From: Alphaproteobacteria bacterium
Lineage (GTDB): Bacteria > Pseudomonadota > Alphaproteobacteria > GCA-2731375
Length of the DNA stretch: 64,000 nt
Direction: 5' to 3'
NCBI GenBank assembly: GCA_965225945.1
Contig: CBDDBZ010000029.1
Coordinates: forward strand, 1-64,000
The notes under the pieces were generated by a model that saw only the letters and a list, made by a program, of their open reading frames with translations, searched no databases and was not told where the DNA came from. A program made the position numbers and the translations under genes. Every line of letters begins with the position of its first letter. Position 1 is the first letter of the stretch. Below are positions 10,929-48,937 of the stretch, in pieces.

Positions 10929-12113
10929 ATGCGCGAAGCCGTCATCGTTTCCACCGCCCGCACGCCGATCGGCAAGGCCTATCGCGGCGCCTTCAACAAT
11001 ACCCACGGCGCCGACCTCGGCGGCCATGCGATCCACCATGCGGTCGAGCGCGCCGGCATCGAGCCCGAGACGGTTGAGGACGTCATCATGGGCTGCGCGG
11101 GGCCGGAGGGCGCCACCGGCGGCAACATCGCGCGCCAATGCGCGATCCGCGCCGGTCTTCCCGTCACGACCGCCGGGACCACGGTGAACCGCTTCTGCTC
11201 CTCCGGGCTCCAGACCATCGCCATGGCGGCGAGCCGCGTCATCGTCGACGGCGTGCCGGTCATGGTCGCCGGTGGACTGGAGAGCGTCAGCCTGGTTCAA
11301 AACGAGCATCAGAACCGCTATCGCGGTCGCAACGAATGGATCGAGGAGCATAAGCCGGCGCTCTACGATGCCATGTTGACGACGGCGCAGACCGTCGCCG
11401 ACCGCTATTCGATCAGCCGTGAAGCGCAGGACGAGTACGCGCTGCAGAGCCAGCTTCGTACCGCCGCCGGCCAGCAGCGCGGCGCCTTCGACGACGAGAT
11501 CGTGCCGCTGCCGTCGATCAAGATCATCCTCGACAAGGAGAGCGGCGAGAGTTCGGAGCAGGAGGTGGTGCTGGAACGCGACGAGGGCAATCGGCCCAGC
11601 ACGTCGGCCGACGGCCTGGCCGGCCTCGAGCCGGTGACCGGCCCCGACGGCCACATCACCGCCGGCAACGCCAGCCAACTTTCCGACGGGGCCTCGGCCT
11701 GCGTCGTGATGGAGGCGCGCGAGGCGGAGCGCCGAGGGCTCGAGCCGCTCGGCTATTTTCGCGGCCTCGCCGTCGCCGGTTGCGAGCCGGACGAGATGGG
11801 CATTGGCCCGGTCTTCGCCGTGCCCCGCCTGCTGGAGCGGACCGGGCTCTCGATGGACGACATCGACCTCTGGGAACTGAACGAGGCTTTCGCCGTCCAG
11901 GTGGTCTACTGCCGCGACAAGCTCGCCATCCCGAACGAGAACCTGAACGTCGACGGGGGCGCGATCTCGATCGGCCATCCCTTCGGCATGAGCGGTGCCC
12001 GCATGGTCGGCCACGCGCTGATCGAGGGCAAGAAGCGCGGCGCCAAGCACGTCGTCACCACGATGTGCATCGGCGGCGGCATGGGGGCCGCGGGCCTCTT
12101 CGAGGTGGTCTGA
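10929..12113 (+). CDS. Acetyl-CoA C-acyltransferase (thiolase)
   Basis: [29 protein letters not shown]. Confidence 0.96.
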
Positions 12114-12420
12114 TACCGGTGACCCCATGATGTGACTCTTGGGGGGATTCCCTCGGTGCGGATTTTGTGATTCCCTCACTCCCACACAACATATGGTGGG
12201 GTTGAGATGGTTGCGCTCAAGATACGGGATGATATGATGGCGGATGAGCTTCGGCGCTGGGCCCGCACCTCGGCCCGGGGTCGGGCGGCGGCGCGGGCCT
12301 ACGCGATCGCCAACGCGCTGGAAGGGATGAGCCGGGACGAGGCGGCGCGCTTGGCCGGGATGGAACGCCAAGCGTTGCACGACGCGGTCGTTCGCTACAA
12401 CGCCGAAGGGCTGGCGGGAC
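12114..12420 (+). mobile_element. IS630-family element, left part only (cut by IS21)
   Basis: Near-identical to 48938-49244; starts TA-CCGGTGACCCC right after the thiolase stop codon. Confidence 0.9.
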
Positions 12421-12623
12421 TGTCAATCGGCGTTGAACATTGACCCCCTATCGGCGTGCAATGTTGACCCCTTTGGGGATGCACGGCGGAGGTCGTACAG
12501 GTAGTCCATAGGAGGGGCCCGCGCGCGGGCCGACGCGCCCACCACGCGGCTGGCGGCGGACCGCGCGTGGGAGGTTCCTGTGGGCCCACCTGGGCGACCG
12601 GGCGGCAGGTGGATCGGTTGCCT

Positions 12624-13352
12624 TTAGGACCGATTCTTGAAGCGCCAGGAGTCGTTTCCGGTCTCGATGATCTCGCAGTGGTGCGTCAGACGATCGAGGA
12701 GCGCGGTGGTCATCTTGGCGTCGCCGAAGACGGACGGCCATTCGCCGAAGGTCAGGTTGGTGGTGACGATGATCGAGGTGCGCTCGTAGAGCCGGCTGAC
12801 GAGGTGGAACAGCAGCTGGCCTCCGGTTTGGGCGAAGGGCAGGTAGCCGAGCTCGTCGAGGATGACGAGGTCGCGCCGGGCCAGCTGATCGGCGAGCCGG
12901 CCCTGGCGGCCGGCGCGGGCTTCGGCCTCGAGCCGGTTGACCAGGTCGACGACGTTGAAGAAGCGGCCCCGGGCGCCATCGCGGATGCAGGCCCGCGCGA
13001 TGGCGACGGCGAGATGGCTCTTGCCGGTGCCGGTGCCGCCGATCAGCACGGCGTTGCGCTGGTTGGCCAGGAAGCCGCCGACCGCCAACTCGCGGACCAG
13101 CGGCTCGTTGACCGGGGTGTCGGTGAAGTCGAAGTCGGCCAGCTCCTTGGCCAGCGGCAGCTTGGCGCCACTCATCTGGTACTTGATGGATCGCGCCTGC
13201 TTGTCGGCGATCTCGGCCTTCAACAGCTCGCCGATGATTCGCTGCATCGGATGCTGGCGCTTGAGGCCGTCGGCGAGCACCTCGTCGAACGCGTCGCGCA
13301 TGCCGGCGAGCTTGAGTGCGGCCATCATCTCCAGGACCTCATGGCGCTCCAT
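12624..13352 (-). CDS. istB: IS21 helper ATPase IstB
   Basis: [30 protein letters not shown]. Confidence 0.97.
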
Positions 13353-14911
13353 GGCCGACCCCCCTCAAGCGGTCGTAGCGGGTGCAATCGGCCACCGGCT
13401 CAAAGCGAAGACGCAGGTTCGCGGGCGTCGGGATCGGCGCCGTCTCGGACGGCTGGCGCCGACGATTGAGGATGTTGAGCACGACGTCGGCGCTGCACAC
13501 GCCGCCAGCGAGCGCCTCGGCACAGGCGGCCTCCACCGCCGCCAGCCCATCCGCCAGCACGGCGGTGAGGATCTCGACCATCTGCCTGTCGCCGTCGTCG
13601 TGGCCGGCGAGCCGGACGCGCACGCGACCCAGGGCGCCGGGCAGCGCCCAGTCCTTGAACGGCGCGCCGTTACGAAGCGCACCGGGCTTCCTCGCCAGCA
13701 CGGGCACGTAGTGCCACGGGTCATAGACGGTCTGGTCGCGGCCGAAGCGCCGGGCATGCTCGGCGACGATCTCGCCGTCCTGGCGGATGACGATGCGATC
13801 GGCGTAGGCATGGACCTCGACCGGACGGCCGACGGCGCGCGCCGCCACGCTGTACTTGTTGCTGTCGAAGCGCACCAGGCAGGTCTTCGACACCGACGCC
13901 GGGACCGCGTGGAAGCCGTCGAACGGCCCGCGATAGCCGACCAGGGACGGACGCTCGTCCTCGAACACCTGCCAGACAGTCCTGTCCTTGAACACCGGGG
14001 GGGGATGACGCCGGGCGTAGGCGACGCACTGGTCCAAGAGCCAGGCGTTGAGTTCGTCGTAGGTCTTGAAGCGCAGCCGCGGGGTGAAGAACCGACCGCG
14101 GATGATCCCGACCTGGTTCTCGACCTGCCCCTTCTCCCATCCCGCTCCCGGCGTGCATGCTGTCGGTTCGACCAGGTAGTGGCCACACATCTGCACGAAG
14201 CGCCGGTTGAACGCGCGCTCCTTGCCGATGAGGACGGTCTGCACCGCCGTCTTCATGTTGTCGTAGATGCCTCGCCGGCAGGCACCCTGGAACAGCCGGA
14301 ATGCCCGGTCGTGGGCGTCGAACACCATCTCCTGGCTCTCGCGCGGATAAGCGCGGACGAAGAACATTCGGCTGTGGCACAGCCGGACGTGCGCGACCTT
14401 GACCTTGGTCGTCACCCCCGCCAGCACCACGTACTCGTGGCTCCAGTCGAACTGATAGGCCTCGCCCGGCGAGAACACCAACGGCACATAGGTCTGCGCC
14501 GAAAAACCCTACATCACTTGGAAAGCAGAGGATGACTGATCAACGGCGTTCGATGCCGAACGTCGATGCCGAACGGCGCCACCGCCACGCCTTGGCGTAG
14601 CGCCGCACCGCGTCGTAGCCGCCGCCATAGCCCAGACCCTCGAGGGCTTCGGAGATCCGTAGCAGCGTCAGCCGCTCCCGCTTCGACTTGGTCTCGTTGG
14701 CCTCCAGCATCCGCTCCAGCTCGGCCGTCCACGGCCCCAGCTTCGGCATCGGCTGGACCCGCCGGTCGTAGGTGAACGCCGTCGCCTGCGAACGGATCAC
14801 CTTGCGCACCGTGTTGCCCGAGACCTTCACGTCCCGCACGATCTCCTTGATCGGCTTCCCCTTGACGAAATACTCCCGCCGGATCCGCGCTATCGTCTCC
14901 ACGACCAACAT
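13339..14911 (-). pseudogene. istA: IS21 transposase IstA split by a 61-nt insertion
   Basis: ORFs 14540..14911 and 13339..14487 together correspond to the intact IstA at 46231..47742. Confidence 0.93.
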
Positions 14912-41004: not shown

Positions 41005-42065
41005 GGGGTCATTCTGCTTTTGTTCCGCTCCAGCGAATAAAGTAGAACCTGACTACGCATCAACCTCAGCTAATTTGAGGAGCCGATATGGCATGGGGGG
41101 CGTGCGCAGGGCGTCGCGTCCGAGGGCCTCGATCATGTCGGCGAGCCGGTAGCGGCGGTTATATCGGTATTGGAACGCCGCCAGGTAGCGCGGAACGTGT
41201 TTGGGCCGGATCGCATGGTAGGTGCCACGCAGGGTGTTCTTGAGATTGCCGAGGGTGGTGTTGACCCATTTGAAGGCCGGCACGGCGACGGCCCCTGGTC
41301 CGGAGCCGGTGGGTATCGGATGGTGGGCGCAGCCTTGCGCGGTGACCGCGGTGAAGCAGTTGAGCCCGTCGCTGAAGACGCTCGTCCCGGGGCTCAGGTC
41401 GCGCTTGGCCATCTTGGCGATTTCGGCCTTGCGGAAGCCCTTGACGCGGCGCAGCTTGATGCGCACGGGCTGGCCCTCCGCCGTGGCTCGGCGGCGATAA
41501 ATGGCGTCTTGCCCGGCGCGCCCCGGCCGCGCTTGGCCCCGGAACGCCGGCCGCCGAGGTAGGCGTCGTCCATCTCCACCCGCCCGGTGAGCGGCAATTT
41601 GGCGTCGCGCGAGCATGGGCATCAGTTTCTGCTTGATCTTCCAGGCCGTGGTCTGGGTGAGCCGAGCCGTCGGCCGATTGTTCGATGGAGGAGATCCCCT
41701 TCTTCGATTGGGTCATGTGATAGATCGCCGAAAACCACAGGGTCAGCGCCAGCTTGGTCGCGTGGAAGAGCGTGCCGGCGGTCAGCGAGACTTGATGACG
41801 GCAGGCGGCGCATTGGTAGAGTTTTCGCCCGGCGATCTCGCAATGGCGCGTGGCACCGCATCGGGGGCAGGAGAAGCCCTCCGGCCAACGCCAGCGGAAC
41901 GGCCTCGCGGCCTGCTCCTCGGTGCCGTACATTTCACGGAAACGCGGCTCGCTGAGTCACCTTGTTGCGTGCATTGTGAACCTCCAGAAAAACCACCAAA
42001 TATTCACGATTTGTACCACATCAATCCGGCTGAGTAAGGTGCGTAATCAGGAAGTAGAATGACCC
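41005..42065. repeat. REP-like hairpin split by IS1595 (arms 41005-41047 and 42052-42065)
   Basis: Removing the IS gives GGGTCATTCTGCTTTTGTTC-N9-GAATAAAAGTAGAATGACCC. Confidence 0.8.
41048..42051 (-). mobile_element. IS1595-family element (CCTGATT-type ends) with multiply frameshifted transposase
   Basis: Ends CCTGA(C/T)TACGCA; 8-bp DR AAGTAGAA; RWPEGFSCPRC, VEMDDAYLGG, FKWVNTTLGNLK in different frames. Confidence 0.92.
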
Positions 42066-43266
42066 GTGCGCCGGTATCGCCGGCGAGGAGTAGCGGATGA
42101 GAGAGCCGTACGGTGAAGGGTTAGCCATCCACACCGGCCCCGAGTCATGCGCCTGCGGTCCGCGAGGGCGAGGCGAAGCGTTGACAGGGGTACATGTGGG
42201 CTGGGTATTGAGCCGCAAAAAATGCGCATTCGAGGCGCCGACCCTGTGGGTCTATGGGGAAGGCCACACCGACGAGCGCGCATTGGCGAGCGCTCGGAGG
42301 GCCTTGCGCGGTCGTAGAGCCCACGCACGCATGGAAATCGCCTGAGCGGAAACCGGGAGATCTCTCGAGTGGCCGTCCTTGCGTTTGCGCGGTCCGCATC
42401 GGGAAGGCCCGAAGGGCCGTAGCCGATGACGCACGCTCGAGAGAAGTCAGATTCGCCCATAGTACCTGGGAAGCCGACGAACAAAGCCTTGTGCGAGGCG
42501 GCGGAGCCGGTGGAGGGAAGGGGCGGAGCCAAGGGGAACGTGGGTCAGCAACGCAGGCGCCGGACGCGGAGTCGGGAAAGCCTGTCACAGGGGCTGGAGC
42601 GCGTACGAGAAGCGGCGAGACGAGATGGGAAACTAAAGTTCACCGCGCTGCTGCACCATGTCGATGTCGAACTCCTTCGGGCCTCCTACCTGGCGCTGAA
42701 GCGCGACGCGGCGCCCGGAGTGGACGGCATGACGTGGCAAGAGTACGGCCAGGATCTGGAGCAGCGTCTCCCGAACCTGCATGGGCGGCTCCATCGGGGC
42801 GGCTACCGGGCTCTGCCGAGCCGGCGACAATTCATCGCGAAGTCGGACGGCTCGGCGCGGGCATTGGGGATCGCGGCCCTGGAGGACAAGATCGCCCATA
42901 TGGCCGTGAGCACGGTGCTGAACCAGATTTACGAGGAAGATTTCCTCGGGTTCAGCTACGGCTTCCGTCCGGGGCGCAACCAGCACGACGCGCTGGACGC
43001 GCTCGCGGTGGCGATCACCGAGCGCGAGGTGAACTGGATCCTGGACGCCGATATATCCGGCTTCTTCGACTCATCCGACCAAAACTGGCTGAGAGGGTTC
43101 CTAGAGCGCCGGATCGGAGATCGGCGTCTCCTCCGCCTTACGGCCAAGTGGCTGAAAGATGGTATATCGCGGCGGCTGTGGCTGATGATATCAGGATGAT
43201 GGCAGCCCCTTCACGCATGATCGTTCAATCGGGGTCGCCCTGACCTCGAACATCGAGGAAGGAGCG

Positions 43267-44316
43267 ATGACGATGGCACATTTCGTAGGTCTGGATGTTT
43301 CGGTGAAGGAGACGGCGGTATGCGTCGTCGACGAGGTTGGCGAGGTGGTGTTGGAGCGGAAAGTACCGACCGAGCCGGACGACATCGTCACGCTGCTGAC
43401 CTCGATCGGCGTGGCCTATGGCCGGATCGGGATCGAAGCCGGTCCGCTCTCGCAATGGCTGGTCAACGGTCTTGCCGCCGCCGGGCTGCCGGTTGTCTGC
43501 GTCGAGACTCGGCACATGAAAGCACTGCTCAAGGGGCAGCAGGTCAACAAGAGCGACCGCAACGATGCGCGCGGCATCGCCCAGATGATGCGGGTCGGGC
43601 TGTTCAAGCCGGTGCATGTGAAGACCCTGGTTGCCCAGGAGCAGCGGATGCTGCTGACCAGCCGCAAGCTGCTCCAGAGAAAACTGCTCGACGTCGAGAA
43701 CGATCTACGCGGGACGCTGCGCAACTTCGGTCTCAAGGTGGGCATGGTCAGCACCCGCGGGTACGAGGCGCGGATCCGCGAGCTGGTCGAAGACTTTCCG
43801 AAGCTGGCCGCTATTGTGGAACCGCTGCTCACCGTCCGGCGAGTGATGCGCCGGCAGTTCGCGGTCCTCCACAAAATGGTGCTCGACACGGTCCGCCATG
43901 ACCCGGTCTGCCGACGGCTCATGACGGCACCCGGCGTCGGCGTGGTCGTCGCGCTGACCTACCGGGCTACCATTGATCAGCCGCAGCGCTTCGTTCACTC
44001 CAGGGCGGTCGGCGCGCATGTCGGCCTGACGCCGAAGCGCTTCCAGTCCGGCGAGATCGACTATGATGGTCGCGTGTCCAAGTGCGGCGACAGCATGCTC
44101 CGCACGATGCTGTACGAGGCCGCGCAGTCGCTCCTCACCCACGGCCGGAAATGGTCCTGGCTGAAGGCGTGGGGCATGCGAGTGGCCCAGCGACGTGGCA
44201 TGCGCCGTGCCATCGTCGCCGTCGCGAGGCGCCTGGCCGTAATTCTGCACCGCATGTGGGTCGACGGCACCGAGTTCCGCTGGAGCAACGGCCCTACCGC
44301 CGCCAAGGCGGCTTGA
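43267..44316 (+). CDS. IS110-family DEDD recombinase/transposase
   Basis: VGLDVS, IGIEAG, KSDRNDA, GLTPKRFQSGE, VAVARRLAVILHRMW. Confidence 0.96.
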   Translation: MTMAHFVGLDVSVKETAVCVVDEVGEVVLERKVPTEPDDIVTLLTSIGVAYGRIGIEAGPLSQWLVNGLAAAGLPVVCVETRHMKALLKGQQVNKSDRNDARGIAQMMRVGLFKPVHVKTLVAQEQRMLLTSRKLLQRKLLDVENDLRGTLRNFGLKVGMVSTRGYEARIRELVEDFPKLAAIVEPLLTVRRVMRRQFAVLHKMVLDTVRHDPVCRRLMTAPGVGVVVALTYRATIDQPQRFVHSRAVGAHVGLTPKRFQSGEIDYDGRVSKCGDSMLRTMLYEAAQSLLTHGRKWSWLKAWGMRVAQRRGMRRAIVAVARRLAVILHRMWVDGTEFRWSNGPTAAKAA

Positions 44317-44369
44317 ACCTTCGGCTGTACCGACAAGGAGATCAACGCGTTCTGCTCCGGCAGAGAGAG

Positions 44370-44530
44370 GCCCTCACGGGGACGACGGGTGGGGTGAGTT
44401 CGTAATGTCTGCAGATCCTGCCGCTGAGCGGCGGCAAGGGCGCGCAAAAGATTGAACCGCCTCATCCTCTTATCCCATCATGAGGTGGTCACGCGCCAAC
44501 CTCGAAGAGAAGCAAGAGCCCCGTGCGGCA
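44370..44530 (+). ncRNA. Candidate bridge/seek RNA of the IS110 element
   Basis: Outer stem CACGGGG/CCCCGTG encloses two hairpin-containing loops whose flanks match the target site and the element ends. Confidence 0.7.
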
Positions 44531-46230
44531 ACATCCGCCAGTGCGGAACGACGTGAAGAAGGAATATGGCATGACGTAACCAGAAAGGGCTTGACCGAGG
44601 ACGCGATAGAGAAGCCGGCATTATGCAAGATGGCAAACTCACGGTCCCGGAGCAGGGGACGCCACAGGGCGCGGTGCTCTCACCGCTGCTCTCCAACGTC
44701 TACCTGCACTATGTCCTGGACTTGTGGGCGCACCAATGGCGTCGGCGCCATACCCACTGCGACATGGTCATCGTCCGCTACGCGGACGACTTCGTCGTGG
44801 GCTTCGAGTACCGGGAAGACGCGCTTGCCTTCCGGGCGGCATTGGAGGAACGCTTGCGGGCTTTCGGCCTCGCGCTGTTCGCGGAGAAAACCCGGCTCAT
44901 CGAGTTTGGGCGGCACGCCGCGAAAAGTCGGAAGGGCCGAGGCGACGGCAAGCCGGAGACGTTCGACTTCCTGGGCTTCACGCACATCTGCGCGAAGGAC
45001 CGGAAGGGACGGTTCCAACTGCGACGCAAGACGCGGCGTAAGCGCATGGGGGCGAAGCTCGGGGAGATCAAGCGCGAACTCCTCCGGCGACGGCATCAGC
45101 CAATCGCCGAGCAGGGCCGCTGGCTGGCATCGGTGGTGCGAGGCTACTTCGCGTACTTCGCCGTGCCGACCAACGCTCCGGCCCTGAATGCCTTCCGCTA
45201 TCAGGTCGCCCGGTTCTGGCTGAAAGCGCTCCGGCGCCGCAGCCAGAACGACCGCACGACCTGGAAGGTCTTTGCCAAGCTGGTCGAGCGCTGGCTTCCG
45301 CCAGTGACGATCCTCCATCCCTGGCCGTCGAAGCGGTGACGGGGCATGGGGTGTAGGATCCGGATCGGCGGGAAGAAGCGATCGACGAGACGGCTGAACT
45401 TCTCCCAGTTGAGATACGCCCGTTGACTGCGGCGCCGAAGCGCGCGCCGCCACAGGTGCATCAAGCGGGAGAAGAACCAGGTGAGGCTGCCGGCATTCAG
45501 GGGAACGGCGTAGTAGTTCAGGTGCCCAGTGAGCACCTTGTTGAGCCACGCGCCTGTCTCCGCGACGGGATTGTGCCAACGTCGGCGCAACTCCGTCTTG
45601 ATCGCCAGCAGCTGCGCCCGCATCCGTTTCTTGATCGTTCTGCGCCCGATAACGAATGCGCCGGTGATCCAGGACCGCGAGCAGAAGTGGGTGAAGCCGA
45701 GGAAGTCGAAGGTCTCCGGCTTCCCCTGCCCCCGCTTCTTGCGATCCATGGCCGCGAAACGGCCGAAGCGGATCAGCCGGGTCTTCTCCGGGTGCAACGC
45801 CAACTCGAACGCGCCCATCCTTTCCTCCAACTCGTGCCGGAAGCGCCGCGCCTCATGCTCATGCTGGAAGCCGAGCACGATGTCGTCCGCATAGCGGATG
45901 ACGATCACGTCGCCAGACGTCGTCTTCCGACGCCAAGCGTGGGCCCAGAGGTCGAACACGTAGTGCAGGTAGATGTTCGCCAGGATCGGTGAGATCACCG
46001 CCCCTTGTGGCGTTCCCCGGCAACTCCGCGTGACCCGGTGCTCATCCGTGGTGCCCACCTTCAGCCACTTCGCGATGAGACGCAGGATGCGCTTGTCCAG
46101 GATCCGGTGCCGGAGTGTGGAACGGCGTGCAAAGTTGCCCCCTGTTGAGGGGTGATCGGCGTCCAAATTTGACCCCCTGAGCCTGGCTAGTCCAAGTCAC
46201 CTCGTTTTTGGGCGGACGAGGTGGTGGGGG

Positions 46231-47742
46231 ATGTTGGTCGTGGAGACGATAGCGCGGATCCGGCGGGAGTATTTCGTCAAGGGGAAGCCGATCAAGGAGA
46301 TCGTGCGGGACGTGAAGGTCTCGCGCAACACGGTGCGCAAGGTGATCCGTTCGCAGGCGACGGCGTTCACCTACGACCGGCGGGTCCAGCCGATGCCGAA
46401 GCTGGGGCCGTGGACGGCCGAGCTGGAGCGGATGCTGGAGGCCAACGAGACCAAGTCGAAGCGGGAGCGGCTGACGCTGCTACGGATCTCCGAAGCCCTC
46501 GAGGGTCTGGGCTATGGCGGCGGCTACGACGCGGTGCGGCGCTACGCCAAGGCGTGGCGGTGGCGCCGTTCGGCATCGACGGCGCAGACCTATGTGCCGT
46601 TGGTGTTCTCGCCGGGCGAGGCCTATCAGTTCGACTGGAGCCACGAGTACGTGGTGCTGGCGGGGGTGACGACCAAGGTCAAGGTCGCGCACGTCCGGCT
46701 GTGCCACAGCCGAATGTTCTTCGTCCGCGCTTATCCGCGCGAGAGCCAGGAGATGGTGTTCGACGCCCACGACCGGGCATTCCGGCTGTTCCAGGGTGCC
46801 TGCCGGCGAGGCATCTACGACAACATGAAGACGGCGGTGCAGACCGTCCTCATCGGCAAGGAGCGCGCGTTCAACCGGCGCTTCGTGCAGATGTGTGGCC
46901 ACTACCTGGTTGAACCGACAGCATGCACGCCGGGAGCGGGATGGGAGAAGGGGCAGGTCGAGAACCAGGTCGGGATCATCCGCGGTCGGTTCTTCACCCC
47001 GCGGCTGCGCTTCAAGACCTACGACGAACTCAACGCCTGGCTCTTGGACCAGTGCGTCGCCTACGCCCGGCGTCATCCCCACCCGGTGTTCAAGGACAGG
47101 ACTGTCTGGCAGGTGTTCGAGGACGAGCGTCCGTCCCTGGTCGGCTATCGCGGGCCGTTCGACGGCTTCCACGCGGTCCCGGCGTCGGTGTCGAAGACCT
47201 GCCTGGTGCGCTTCGACAGCAACAAGTACAGCGTGGCGGCGCGCGCCGTCGGCCGTCCGGTCGAGGTCCATGCCTACGCCGATCGCATCGTCATCCGCCA
47301 GGACGGCGAGATCGTCGCCGAGCATGCCCGGCGCTTCGGCCGCGACCAGACCGTCTATGACCCGTGGCACTACGTGCCCGTGCTGGCGAGGAAGCCCGGT
47401 GCGCTTCGTAACGGCGCGCCGTTCAAGGACTGGGCGCTGCCCGGCGCCCTGGGTCGCGTGCGCGTCCGGCTCGCCGGCCACGACGACGGCGACAGGCAGA
47501 TGGTCGAGATCCTCACCGCCGTGCTGGCGGATGGGCTGGCGGCGGTGGAGGCCGCCTGTGCCGAGGCGCTCGCTGGCGGCGTGTGCAGCGCCGACGTCGT
47601 GCTCAACATCCTCAATCGTCGGCGCCAGCCGTCCGAGACGGCGCCGATCCCGACGCCCGCGAACCTGCGTCTTCGCTTTGAGCCGGTGGCCGATTGCACC
47701 CGCTACGACCGCTTGAGGGGGGTCGGCCATGGAGCGCCATGA
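46231..47742 (+). CDS. istA: IS21 transposase IstA
   Basis: [25 protein letters not shown]. Confidence 0.97.
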
Positions 47743-48457
47743 GGTCCTGGAGATGATGGCCGCACTCAAGCTCGCCGGCATGCGCGACGCGTTCGACGAG
47801 GTGCTCGCCGACGGCCTCAAGCGCCAGCATCCGATGCAGCGAATCATCGGCGAGCTGTTGAAGGCCGAGATCGCCGACAAGCAGGCGCGATCCATCAAGT
47901 ACCAGATGAGTGGCGCCAAGCTGCCGCTGGCCAAGGAGCTGGCCGACTTCGACTTCACCGACACCCCGGTCAACGAGCCGCTGGTCCGCGAGTTGGCGGT
48001 CGGCGGCTTCCTGGCCAACCAGCGCAACGCCGTGCTGATCGGCGGCACCGGCACCGGCAAGAGCCATCTCGCCGTCGCCATCGCGCGGGCCTGCATCCGC
48101 GATGGCGCCCGGGGCCGCTTCTTCAACGTCGTCGACCTGGTCAACCGGCTCGAGGCCGAAGCCCGCGCCGGCCGCCAGGGCCGGCTCGCCGATCAGCTGG
48201 CCCGGCGCGACCTCGTCATCCTCGACGAGCTCGGCTACCTGCCCTTCGCCCAAACCGGAGGCCAGCTGCTGTTCCACCTCGTCAGCCGGCTCTACGAGCG
48301 CACCTCGATCATCGTCACCACCAACCTGACCTTCGGCGAATGGCCGTCCGTCTTCGGCGACGCCAAGATGACCACCGCGCTCCTCGATCGTCTGACGCAC
48401 CACTGCGAGATCATCGAGACCGGAAACGACTCCTGGCGCTTCAAGAATCGGTCCTAA
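47729..48457 (+). CDS. istB: IS21 helper ATPase IstB
   Basis: Walker A and B motifs; same protein as 12624..13352. Confidence 0.97.
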
Positions 48458-48937
48458 AGGCAACCGATCCACCTGCCGCCCGGTCGCCCAGGTGGGCCCA
48501 CAGGAACCTCCCACGCGCGGTCCGCCGCCAGCCGCGTGGTGGGCGCGTCGGCCCGCGCGCGGGCCCCTCCTATGGACTACCTGTACGACCTCCGCCGTGC
48601 ATCCCCAAAGCGGTCAACATTGCACGCCGATAGGGGGTCAATGTTCAACGCCGATTGACACCGGAGAAAGCGGAGCATCCAGTCGTGGCTCATGGCATCG
48701 AAGAAGCCTTGAATGTCCGCGTCCAGCACCCAGCCCACCCGCTTCCGATAGATCCCGGCATGGAGCGCGTCCAACGCATCGTGCGGACCGCGACCCGGCC
48801 GGAAGCCATAGGAGAAGCCCAAGAAGTCCGCCTCCCAGATCGCCTCCAGAATGAACGCCACCGCCTGCTGGACGATCTTGTCCTCCAGGCAGAGGATACT
48901 GAGCGGACGCTCCGTGCCGTCCGGCTTCGGGATGTAA

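Follow-up and report, generated by a model that had tools for sequence, protein, structure and literature searches.

A predicted seekRNA and its guides in an IS1111-type insertion sequence that splits a group II intron, with a REP-like repeat as the assigned cognate site

The DNA analysed here (the window: 64,000 nucleotides (nt), positions 1 to 64,000 of contig CBDDBZ010000029.1 from an alphaproteobacterium) contains an IS1111-type insertion sequence (IS) at 43159-44614. This and all other features lie on the forward strand unless stated otherwise. The element measures 1456 bp, of which 1454 bp form its body and the remaining two the AG core; most other copies are 1459 bp long, and a search of the same genome found 10 full-length copies at 96-100% identity. 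The window copy splits the reverse transcriptase (RT) gene of a group II intron, which we call intron A. The 5' part of the intron, from its GTGCG start through domains D1-D4 and the N-terminal half of RT, occupies 42066-43158 (Rfam RF02005, 168.3 bits, 42100-42321; RVT_1), and the C-terminal half of RT follows at 44615-45332 (RVT_1). Positions 1-91 of the Pfam RVT_1 profile lie to the left of the element and positions 115-204 to the right. Joining the flanks restores K-W-L-K-A-G-I-M, with the split between the KWLK and AGIM codons, so the initial annotation was right that one mobile element interrupts another. From the sequences we consider it very probable that this is an IS1111 element with a seekRNA whose cognate site is a repetitive extragenic palindromic (REP)-like repeat, that intron A is a near-cognate target, and that the window copy has acquired a guide block for which this genome offers no good target.

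The left end of the element is a short non-coding region of 108 nt (43159-43266) that begins with ATGGTATA, the right-donor sequence. The transposase gene (43267-44316) is an open frame of 349 amino acids (aa) encoding a DEDD RuvC-like domain and a C-terminal Tnp domain with the sequence GLTPKRFQSG. Residues 7-153 match Pfam PF01548 (E = 3.6e-19), an assignment of the N-terminal DEDD RuvC-like domain at the domain level, and the C-terminal domain matches PF02371 (E = 1.7e-20). The NCBIfam equivalog model NF033542, 'IS110 family RNA-guided transposase', scores 250.5 bits against a cut-off of 140. Relatives of known structure are ISCro4 (PDB 9t56), in which GLTPRRYESG aligns with GLTPKRFQSG (the serine motif), and IS621 (chain 8wt6, E = 1.1e-12). 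The non-coding region downstream of the gene measures 295 nt. Subterminal inverted repeats of 7 bp, TATCGCG at 43165-43171 and CGCGATA at 44602-44608, are set in from the ends; their length is at the low end of the 7-17 bp of the IS1111 group, and more distant homologues (65-67% identity) have 11-bp repeats (TAATCGGCCGG / CCGGCCGATTA). A long downstream non-coding region and subterminal repeats are the IS1111-group layout of PMC11187229 and PMC11208160. The domains, the NF033542 match and the 295 versus 108 nt of non-coding sequence thus bear out the initial assignment to an IS1111-type element of the IS110 family. The element is, by its sequence, a complete member of that group; the description 'complete, intact', which the initial annotation gave to the whole system, holds for sequence features (open frame, RNA, ends).

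The predicted seekRNA (or bridge RNA) has a core of ~165 nt at 44367-44531. We derived its consensus structure from the best 80 of 559 relatives, with transposases 65-95% identical, which gave 54 distinct RNA regions for alignment. An outer stem, P1 (CACGGGG, 44375-44381, paired with CCCCGTG, 44519-44525), closes two modules. The first comprises P2 (44384-44402 paired with 44453-44469), an internal loop and the P3 hairpin within it (44417-44439, from the fold and the homologue alignment); the second is the P4 hairpin (44482-44503) with single-stranded arms in a multiloop. In the alignment, 97.2% of the pairing cells agree with this structure, compared with 37.6-51.5% when the partner is slid by 1-3 columns, and two-sided changes occur in 14 of 32 base pairs, including 6 of 15 in P2. 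One P1 pair exchanges between A-U, G-U and G-C, and three P4 pairs change from G-C to A-U in 15-27 sequences. The covariation score was reached by none of 500 shuffles. A covariance model made from the alignment finds the RNA 12 times in the genome and in 79 of the 80 homologous loci, where it invariably follows the transposase gene and shares its strand; the window copy scores 168.1 bits and the standard copies 170.2 bits. Covariation across homologues therefore upholds what the initial annotation had proposed from the window alone: where the RNA lies, the outer stem that closes it, and two loops that are each laid out as guide-hairpin-guide. Positions 44370-44532 fold better than shuffles (z = -2.72; 2 of 200 shuffles were as good). 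Treated as a single fold, the entire 295-nt region does no better than shuffles (z = -0.88); the structure is confined to the core. Between the transposase stop codon and the core lies a conserved small hairpin, UCUGC-UCCG-GCAGA (44351-44364), whose stem is CUGCC/GGCAG in close homologues and CCACC/GGUGG in distant ones; it may be part of a longer precursor RNA. A search of 41500-47500 with Rfam 15 at E <= 1 returned no family for the RNA, only the RF02005 intron and a sub-threshold match to CRISPR-DR29 (47305-47337), which falls outside the element.

The loop of the first module holds two putative target guides. The right target guide (44403-44413) forms its 5' strand; the left target guide, GCGCAAAAG (44442-44450), forms the 3' strand and reads in the same sense as the left flank plus core AG. 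The strings on which the initial annotation based its guides were all found: AAG at 43156-43158 and 44612-44614, AAAG at 44447-44450, AGAGAAG at 44506-44512, and both strands of P1. We also reproduced its 8/10 match of TAATGTCTGC (44403-44412) to the reverse complement of G+CCGGCATTA, and its 8/10 left-end match of ATCCCATCAT (44472-44481). Chance was estimated from 5000 dinucleotide shuffles of the 295-nt region. An 8/10 right-flank match arose in 11.5% of the shuffles, an 8/10 left-end match in 2.2% and a 7/7 right-end match in 6.2%; all three arose jointly in 1 of 5000, and the AAAG match on its own carries zero weight. The window alone is therefore only suggestive, and it is the comparison of homologues that lifts the matches above chance.

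For this comparison we collected guides and flanks from 90 elements (10 from the genome and 80 homologues). Guides were obtained from 80 of them and both flanks from 59, giving 58 unique combinations with 25 right-guide and 31 left-guide variants. The right guide matches its cognate flank at 8.72 of 11 positions on average and non-cognate flanks, meaning those of elements with other guides, at 6.91; the corresponding values for the left guide are 6.67 and 4.87 of 9. For each guide, the observed match was reached by 0 of 10000 permutations. When one representative per distinct guide was used and permuted within identity groups, 0, 0, 17 and 0 of 10000 permutations reached the observed value. 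The comparison of first-loop guides with insertion sites that had been proposed as a check thus came out in favour of covariation. Most of the left-guide signal resides in the last 7 nt (44444-44450), which end in the core AG, and the 4-nt left guide AAAG of the initial annotation has to be extended accordingly. Each of the two target guides matches its flank on a different strand, the two matches overlapping at the core, and the guide complementary to the top strand lies 5' of the bottom-strand guide. The same order is reported for IS1111 members, and the reverse for IS110 members (PMC11187229, PMC11208160). We rejected a second candidate left guide, AGCAAGAGCC (44511-44520; 8/10 to AGCGAAAGCC): this stretch is conserved despite different targets and is partly P1 stem.

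The arms of the second module are likely to be the donor guides for the joined ends of the element. The right donor guide, UUAUCCCAUCAU (44470-44481), is complementary to the core G plus the left-end start ATGGTATA at 9 of 11 positions. The left donor guide (44504-44512) contains AGAGAAG, equal to the right end plus core (7/7). It is invariant in homologues, and so is the right end. At one position of the right donor guide, U or C goes with A or G at position 6 of the left end, and no C-A case was seen. Donor guides hardly vary because the element ends hardly vary.

The genome contains 11 left ends and 12 right ends of the element, with AG always followed by ATGG at the left and GAGAAG always closing the right. 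Three insertions lie at the identical base of three copies of intron A: in the window and at loci C24 and C37, the C37 copy being itself broken by two further insertions. Six insertions lie in one REP-like repeat, between ..CCGGACGTGAyCyGAGCGAAAG and AAGCCGACATTCGGCC... Single insertions were found at C12, between CTGGAAAG and CCGACATTCC, and at C26 in a second repeat family, between CCCCGATAG and CCGACATTGG. One extra right-end remnant is also in the REP-like repeat, and 7 of the 12 ends fall in that repeat family. This remnant, on the minus strand at G000:C37:60704-60962, retains the seekRNA (170.2 bits, standard guides) along with the right end and lacks the transposase gene. Over the 11 insertions the site pattern is GA(A/T)AG^(C/A)CG(A/G)CATT, with the consensus GCGAAAG^CCGACATT.

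The core had been annotated as AAG. All 11 left junctions end in AG, one of them as GATAG. This is the C26 insertion, where GATAG precedes the IS and GAGAAG at its right end is followed by CCGAC, and an empty paralogue at C4 reads CCGATAGCCGACATT. The empty and occupied sites share only AG across the junctions, and in homologues the base preceding AG varies and tracks the left guide. The core is thus the dinucleotide AG, present at the left as the final two bases of the target flank (43157-43158) and at the right, from comparison of junctions across copies, at 44613-44614. Comparison of C4 with C26 also indicates site-specific insertion without target duplication, since only AG is common to donor and target.

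The other 11 RNA copies in the genome carry the guides UAAUGUCGGUA (right) and GCGCGAAAG (left), which we call standard. They pair perfectly (8 + 7) with CCGACATT and GCGAAAG of the REP-like site. The intron site, GAAAG^CCGGCATTA, pairs with the standard right guide at 10 of 11 positions (8 Watson-Crick, 2 G-U) and with the standard left guide at 5 of 7. As judged from these pairings, the cognate site in this genome is GCGAAAG^CCGACATT, one arm of the REP-like palindrome, and the intron RT site is a near-cognate, secondary one; the initial claim that the guides match a group II intron RT gene does not hold for the primary target. The intron A site is specific despite being near-cognate. Within the introns it occurs only in intron A, where all three copies are occupied; 15 sites in paralogous introns, with CTGAACG and CCGGCGTC at the corresponding position and no AG, are unoccupied.

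A whole-genome site search found no perfect empty site. Empty sites with one mismatch to the standard 15-mer number seven (four at the core G and three in the distal right half), and a further 24 have two mismatches. Four empty REP-like members (G000:C25:157324, C29:100457, C29:102711 and C36:267678) read GCGAAAC^CCGACATT, with C replacing the core G, and a fifth, at C29:109708, has one further change. These members look like alleles that the element could not use.

Several observations weigh against the interpretation given so far. The one-mismatch sites are empty, while the intron site with its three mismatches has been filled three times, so simple mismatch counts do not predict use. The flanks were extracted with hand-made patterns, 10 of the 90 elements yielded no guide, and a few right ends are plainly wrong (L046, L064); these mis-called ends were retained in the counts, where they weaken rather than strengthen the signal. 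In this subgroup the right target and right donor guides pair incompletely with the AG core, reading CA/UA where the complement would be CU. The near-invariant donor guides are assigned by their position, their complementarity (9/11 and 7/7) and the one weakly covarying position. The -10 hexamer of the promoter proposed below for the circle junction (GATGGT) is weak. In four public sequencing runs (X1, X3, X15 and X16) we saw neither a circle junction, joining right end to left end, nor an intron joined across the position of the IS, which proves nothing about the absence of either. The element was found in the two metatranscriptome runs among these, X15 and X16, as contigs that attest its presence in the library, not its transcription, ends or strand; both RNA libraries are known as contigs alone and possibly include DNA.

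The window copy differs from the other copies in one respect that bears on how its target is read. Of the 27 changes that separate it from the 10-copy consensus, 20 fall in a diverged block (44242-44489); divergence from the other copies is ~7% in the block and ~1% in the 5' 1062 nt. The block alters three guide bases, two of the right guide (44410, G>T; 44412, T>C) and one of the left (44446, G>A). The guides of the window copy consequently fit their own site worse than the standard guides do: the right guide has a mismatch in its interior, and the left one pairs at 4 of 7 positions. The site that they predict, GCAAAAG^C(A/G)GACATTA, has no match within one mismatch in the genome; specificity read from this single copy leads to a target that the genome lacks. 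At 44412, 44416, 44440 and 44471 the window carries the commonest homologue state and the standard copies an unusual one. A variant with C at 44410, similar to the window, makes up a minor part of one public run. The minor variant contig in X3 has a depth resembling that of the intron flanks, and the contigs (140 nt) are too short for linkage. The block most likely reflects an exchange (recombination) with a related element rather than decay.

Whether the three intron A copies were hit once or repeatedly affects what they can say about targeting. The intron flanks of the three copies show 0-2 differences per 600 nt in most segments, and one segment differs by 1.6%, indicating mosaicism. The IS bodies differ at 5-11 positions per 1062 and are not mutual nearest relatives: C24b is the copy closest to that in the window (4 differences), and the C37 intron copy is closest to another copy at C37 (1 difference). 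We lean, slightly, towards at least two independent insertions. A single insertion, followed by spread of the composite (by trans mobilisation or DNA duplication) and gene conversion among IS copies, is a serious possibility that we nevertheless hold to be the less probable account; it would make the three occupied introns uninformative on repeated targeting. It would explain the near-identical flanks with their one mosaic segment, and the finding of no empty intron A in the genome (0 matches at <=3 mismatches in 22) or in 32 genomes of the family. The diverged block indicates that exchange between copies occurs, and a related intron family contributes many further RTs (at least 15 copies). 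Retrohoming of a composite with a broken RT is unlikely, however, the IS copies carry the polymorphism patterns of different IS lineages, and the three introns, of which two are full-length, occupy separate locations.

Two histories fit the present state of the window copy: placement by standard guides, from its own earlier RNA or from a sister RNA acting in trans, or a change of the block after insertion. We tentatively propose, well short of an even chance, that the guide-bearing part of the seekRNA is an exchangeable cassette, that a swap of ~250 nt retargeted the element in one step, and that copies can be placed by sister guides in trans. Were this so, the locus would be a natural record of RNA-guided retargeting in which one mobile element family disables another, with three intron A copies occupied; placement in trans would further mean that the element can occupy a site its own RNA would not choose. 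Random drift in a decaying, inactive copy, with no exchanged module, would account for guides that lack a target within one mismatch and would suit the heavily rearranged surroundings, where the host intron is broken at 45332. We consider drift unlikely: the 349-aa frame is open, the RNA scores 168.1 against 170.2 bits, the differences are clustered (20 of 27 within 250 nt), four of the block positions listed above show the commonest homologue state, and a similar variant (C at 44410) exists in a public run.

In the reading implied by the initial annotation, the element has the intron RT site as its cognate and selected target, and the window guides are tuned to it. Occupation of all three intron A copies at the identical base, IS copies there that are not nearest relatives, as repeated hits would leave them, and a right half that pairs at 10 of 11 positions with the standard guide are what one would expect in that case. 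The standard guides, however, are perfect on the REP-like site and fit only 5 of 7 positions of the intron left half, and sites outside the intron account for 8 of the 11 full insertions and for one remnant. The window guides fit the intron worse than the standard ones do, by the internal right mismatch and the 4/7 left match, and the changed bases belong to a 250-nt block with 20 differences and are not three point adaptations. We regard this version as very improbable. Choice of the site by the protein or by a DNA hairpin of the REP-like repeat, with the complementarities as by-products, can point to most targets being one arm of the palindrome AAAGCCGAC..GTCGGCTTT and to the structure component reported for ISPpu10 (preprint 10.64898/2026.03.19.712850), but it hardly merits belief when the intron, C12 and C26 sites lie outside the palindrome and still share GA(A/T)AG^CCG(A/G)CATT, when the opposite arm (CCGAAAGCCGACGTT) is empty, and when guides and flanks change together over 25 right-guide and 31 left-guide variants.

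Returning to the IS1111 seekRNA element with a REP-like cognate site, the right end offers a clue to expression. We found no sigma-70-like promoter in the linear element. TTGACC (44591-44596), a -35-like hexamer pointing outward at the right end and conserved in the homologue alignment, is a candidate half of a circle-junction promoter: in the circular form TTGAC would stand 17 nt before the weak hexamer across the junction. A junction promoter has been described for the IS1111-type family (PMC11187229), and the conserved TTGAC fits that description. The expected circle junction would read ..GCGATAGAGA-AG-ATGGTATATCG.

From the anatomy, the covariation of RNA structure and of guides with flanks, and the site catalogue, we infer a mechanism in which RNA production, protein binding, the circle, its promoter and activity are all conditional. 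The DEDD transposase from 43267-44316 would bind the ~165-nt RNA from 44367-44531, whose outer stem closes two modules. The first module (P2, internal loop and P3) would address the target, and the second (P4 and the multiloop arms) would pair with the joined ends of the element, that is, left-end ATGGTATA and right end ..AGAG-AG. If the element behaves like ISEc11, ISPa11 and IS621, its RNA-protein complex would join the circularised form to the target, with strand exchange at AG and no target duplication.

The surroundings of the element are heavily populated by other mobile DNA. At 45332/45333, seven bases before the RT stop codon, the window intron A loses homology to the other two copies, in which a D5-like hairpin and, after it, the next intron follow. 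Rfam gave no match for intron D5-D6, even in full-length introns of the same genome, so the break at 45332 was judged by homology. Positions 45333-46115 of the window contain part of an RT from a third type of intron, in inverted orientation, and 46116-48663 an IS21-type element with a 503-aa open reading frame (ORF) at 46231-47742. Copies of the latter, 99.8% identical, interrupt the C37 IS copy (equivalent to window 44225) and the C24 intron A (equivalent to window 42551). Intron A sits in paralogous sequence in the window (41037-42065) and at C24, where the upstream regions are 93.7% identical and contain minus-strand ISXO2/IS1595-like transposase ORFs. At C37 the context differs, and the only common stretch is AAG(T/C)AGAATGACCC before the GTGCG start, which looks like the homing site of intron A. 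A second group II intron family, with an RT region ~67% identical to that of intron A, has at least 15 copies. It forms head-to-tail arrays with a period of ~1881 nt, each intron starting after the 3' end of the preceding one (G000:C38:556928-561077 and G000:C31:260883-265033; also directly after intron A in L138, at about 11050-14900, and in L139). The genome also contains a second, more distant IS110-family element in at least five copies (G000:C30:137469-137629 and 143710-143870, C16:1253-1413, C11:19105-19265, C13:8764-8924), 72% identical across a 160-nt part of the transposase gene.

RNA-guided IS110/IS1111 recombinases are under development as genome-writing tools, for which natural examples of tolerance are useful. 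This genome is a natural data set of that kind: one guide pair, 11 mapped insertions and a fully occupied class of perfect sites. Near-cognate sites with G-U wobble in the right half and two distal mismatches in the left half have been used, and sites with the core G changed to C or with distal right-half mismatches have not. The set includes a copy with a swapped guide block and is valuable for what it records of guide-target tolerance and guide-block exchange. Together with their flanks, the 25 variants of the right guide and 31 of the left found across homologues amount to a readable code for this subgroup.

The closest parallels are the IS1111 seekRNA elements ISEc11, ISPa11 and ISKpn4 (Siddiquee et al. 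2024, PMC11187229), in which a transposase of 330-350 aa likewise carries a GL-P----SG motif, the longer non-coding region is downstream, the subterminal repeats have short terminal extensions, the guide order is the same and the matches of both guides overlap at the point of insertion. IS621 and its bridge RNA (Durrant et al. 2024, PMC11208160; also Hiraizumi et al. 2024, PMC11208158) share the four guides, with target and donor held by one RNA, the dinucleotide core within each left guide, and the DEDD and Tnp domains. The IS621 RNA, however, lies in the left end rather than the right, its guide order is reversed, and its donor guides occupy a simple internal loop, whereas here they flank a hairpin in a multiloop, an arrangement noted for many IS1111 orthologues (PMC11208160). 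The right guides of the present element also pair only partly with the core, unlike those of IS621. The core of IS621 is CT, compared with AG here. ISPpu9 and ISPpu10 of Pseudomonas putida (PMC12288879, 10.64898/2026.03.19.712850) are likewise IS110-family elements in REP or conserved intergenic repeats; they belong to a different subgroup and host and are likened by description only. ISPpu9 is reported to have extra stand-alone copies of its small RNA gene, and here there is the one remnant, made up of RNA and right end, at G000:C37:60704-60962. ISPa11 also targets a REP-type repeat (PMC11187229). In a full-text search of the literature, no publication turned up that describes an IS110/IS1111 element inside the RT gene of a group II intron. 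The IS110-group element ISEc21 has conserved codons of an IS3 transposase as its target (PMC11187229), so hitting another mobile element, as at the secondary site in the intron RT gene, is a known kind of event. The known picture of how the IS110/IS1111 family works is unchanged by the present element. A natural change of guides between relatives is also seen in ISEc11 and ISXne4 (PMC11187229); those two elements are 72% identical, whereas the guide change described here occurs on a ~99% identical backbone within one genome.

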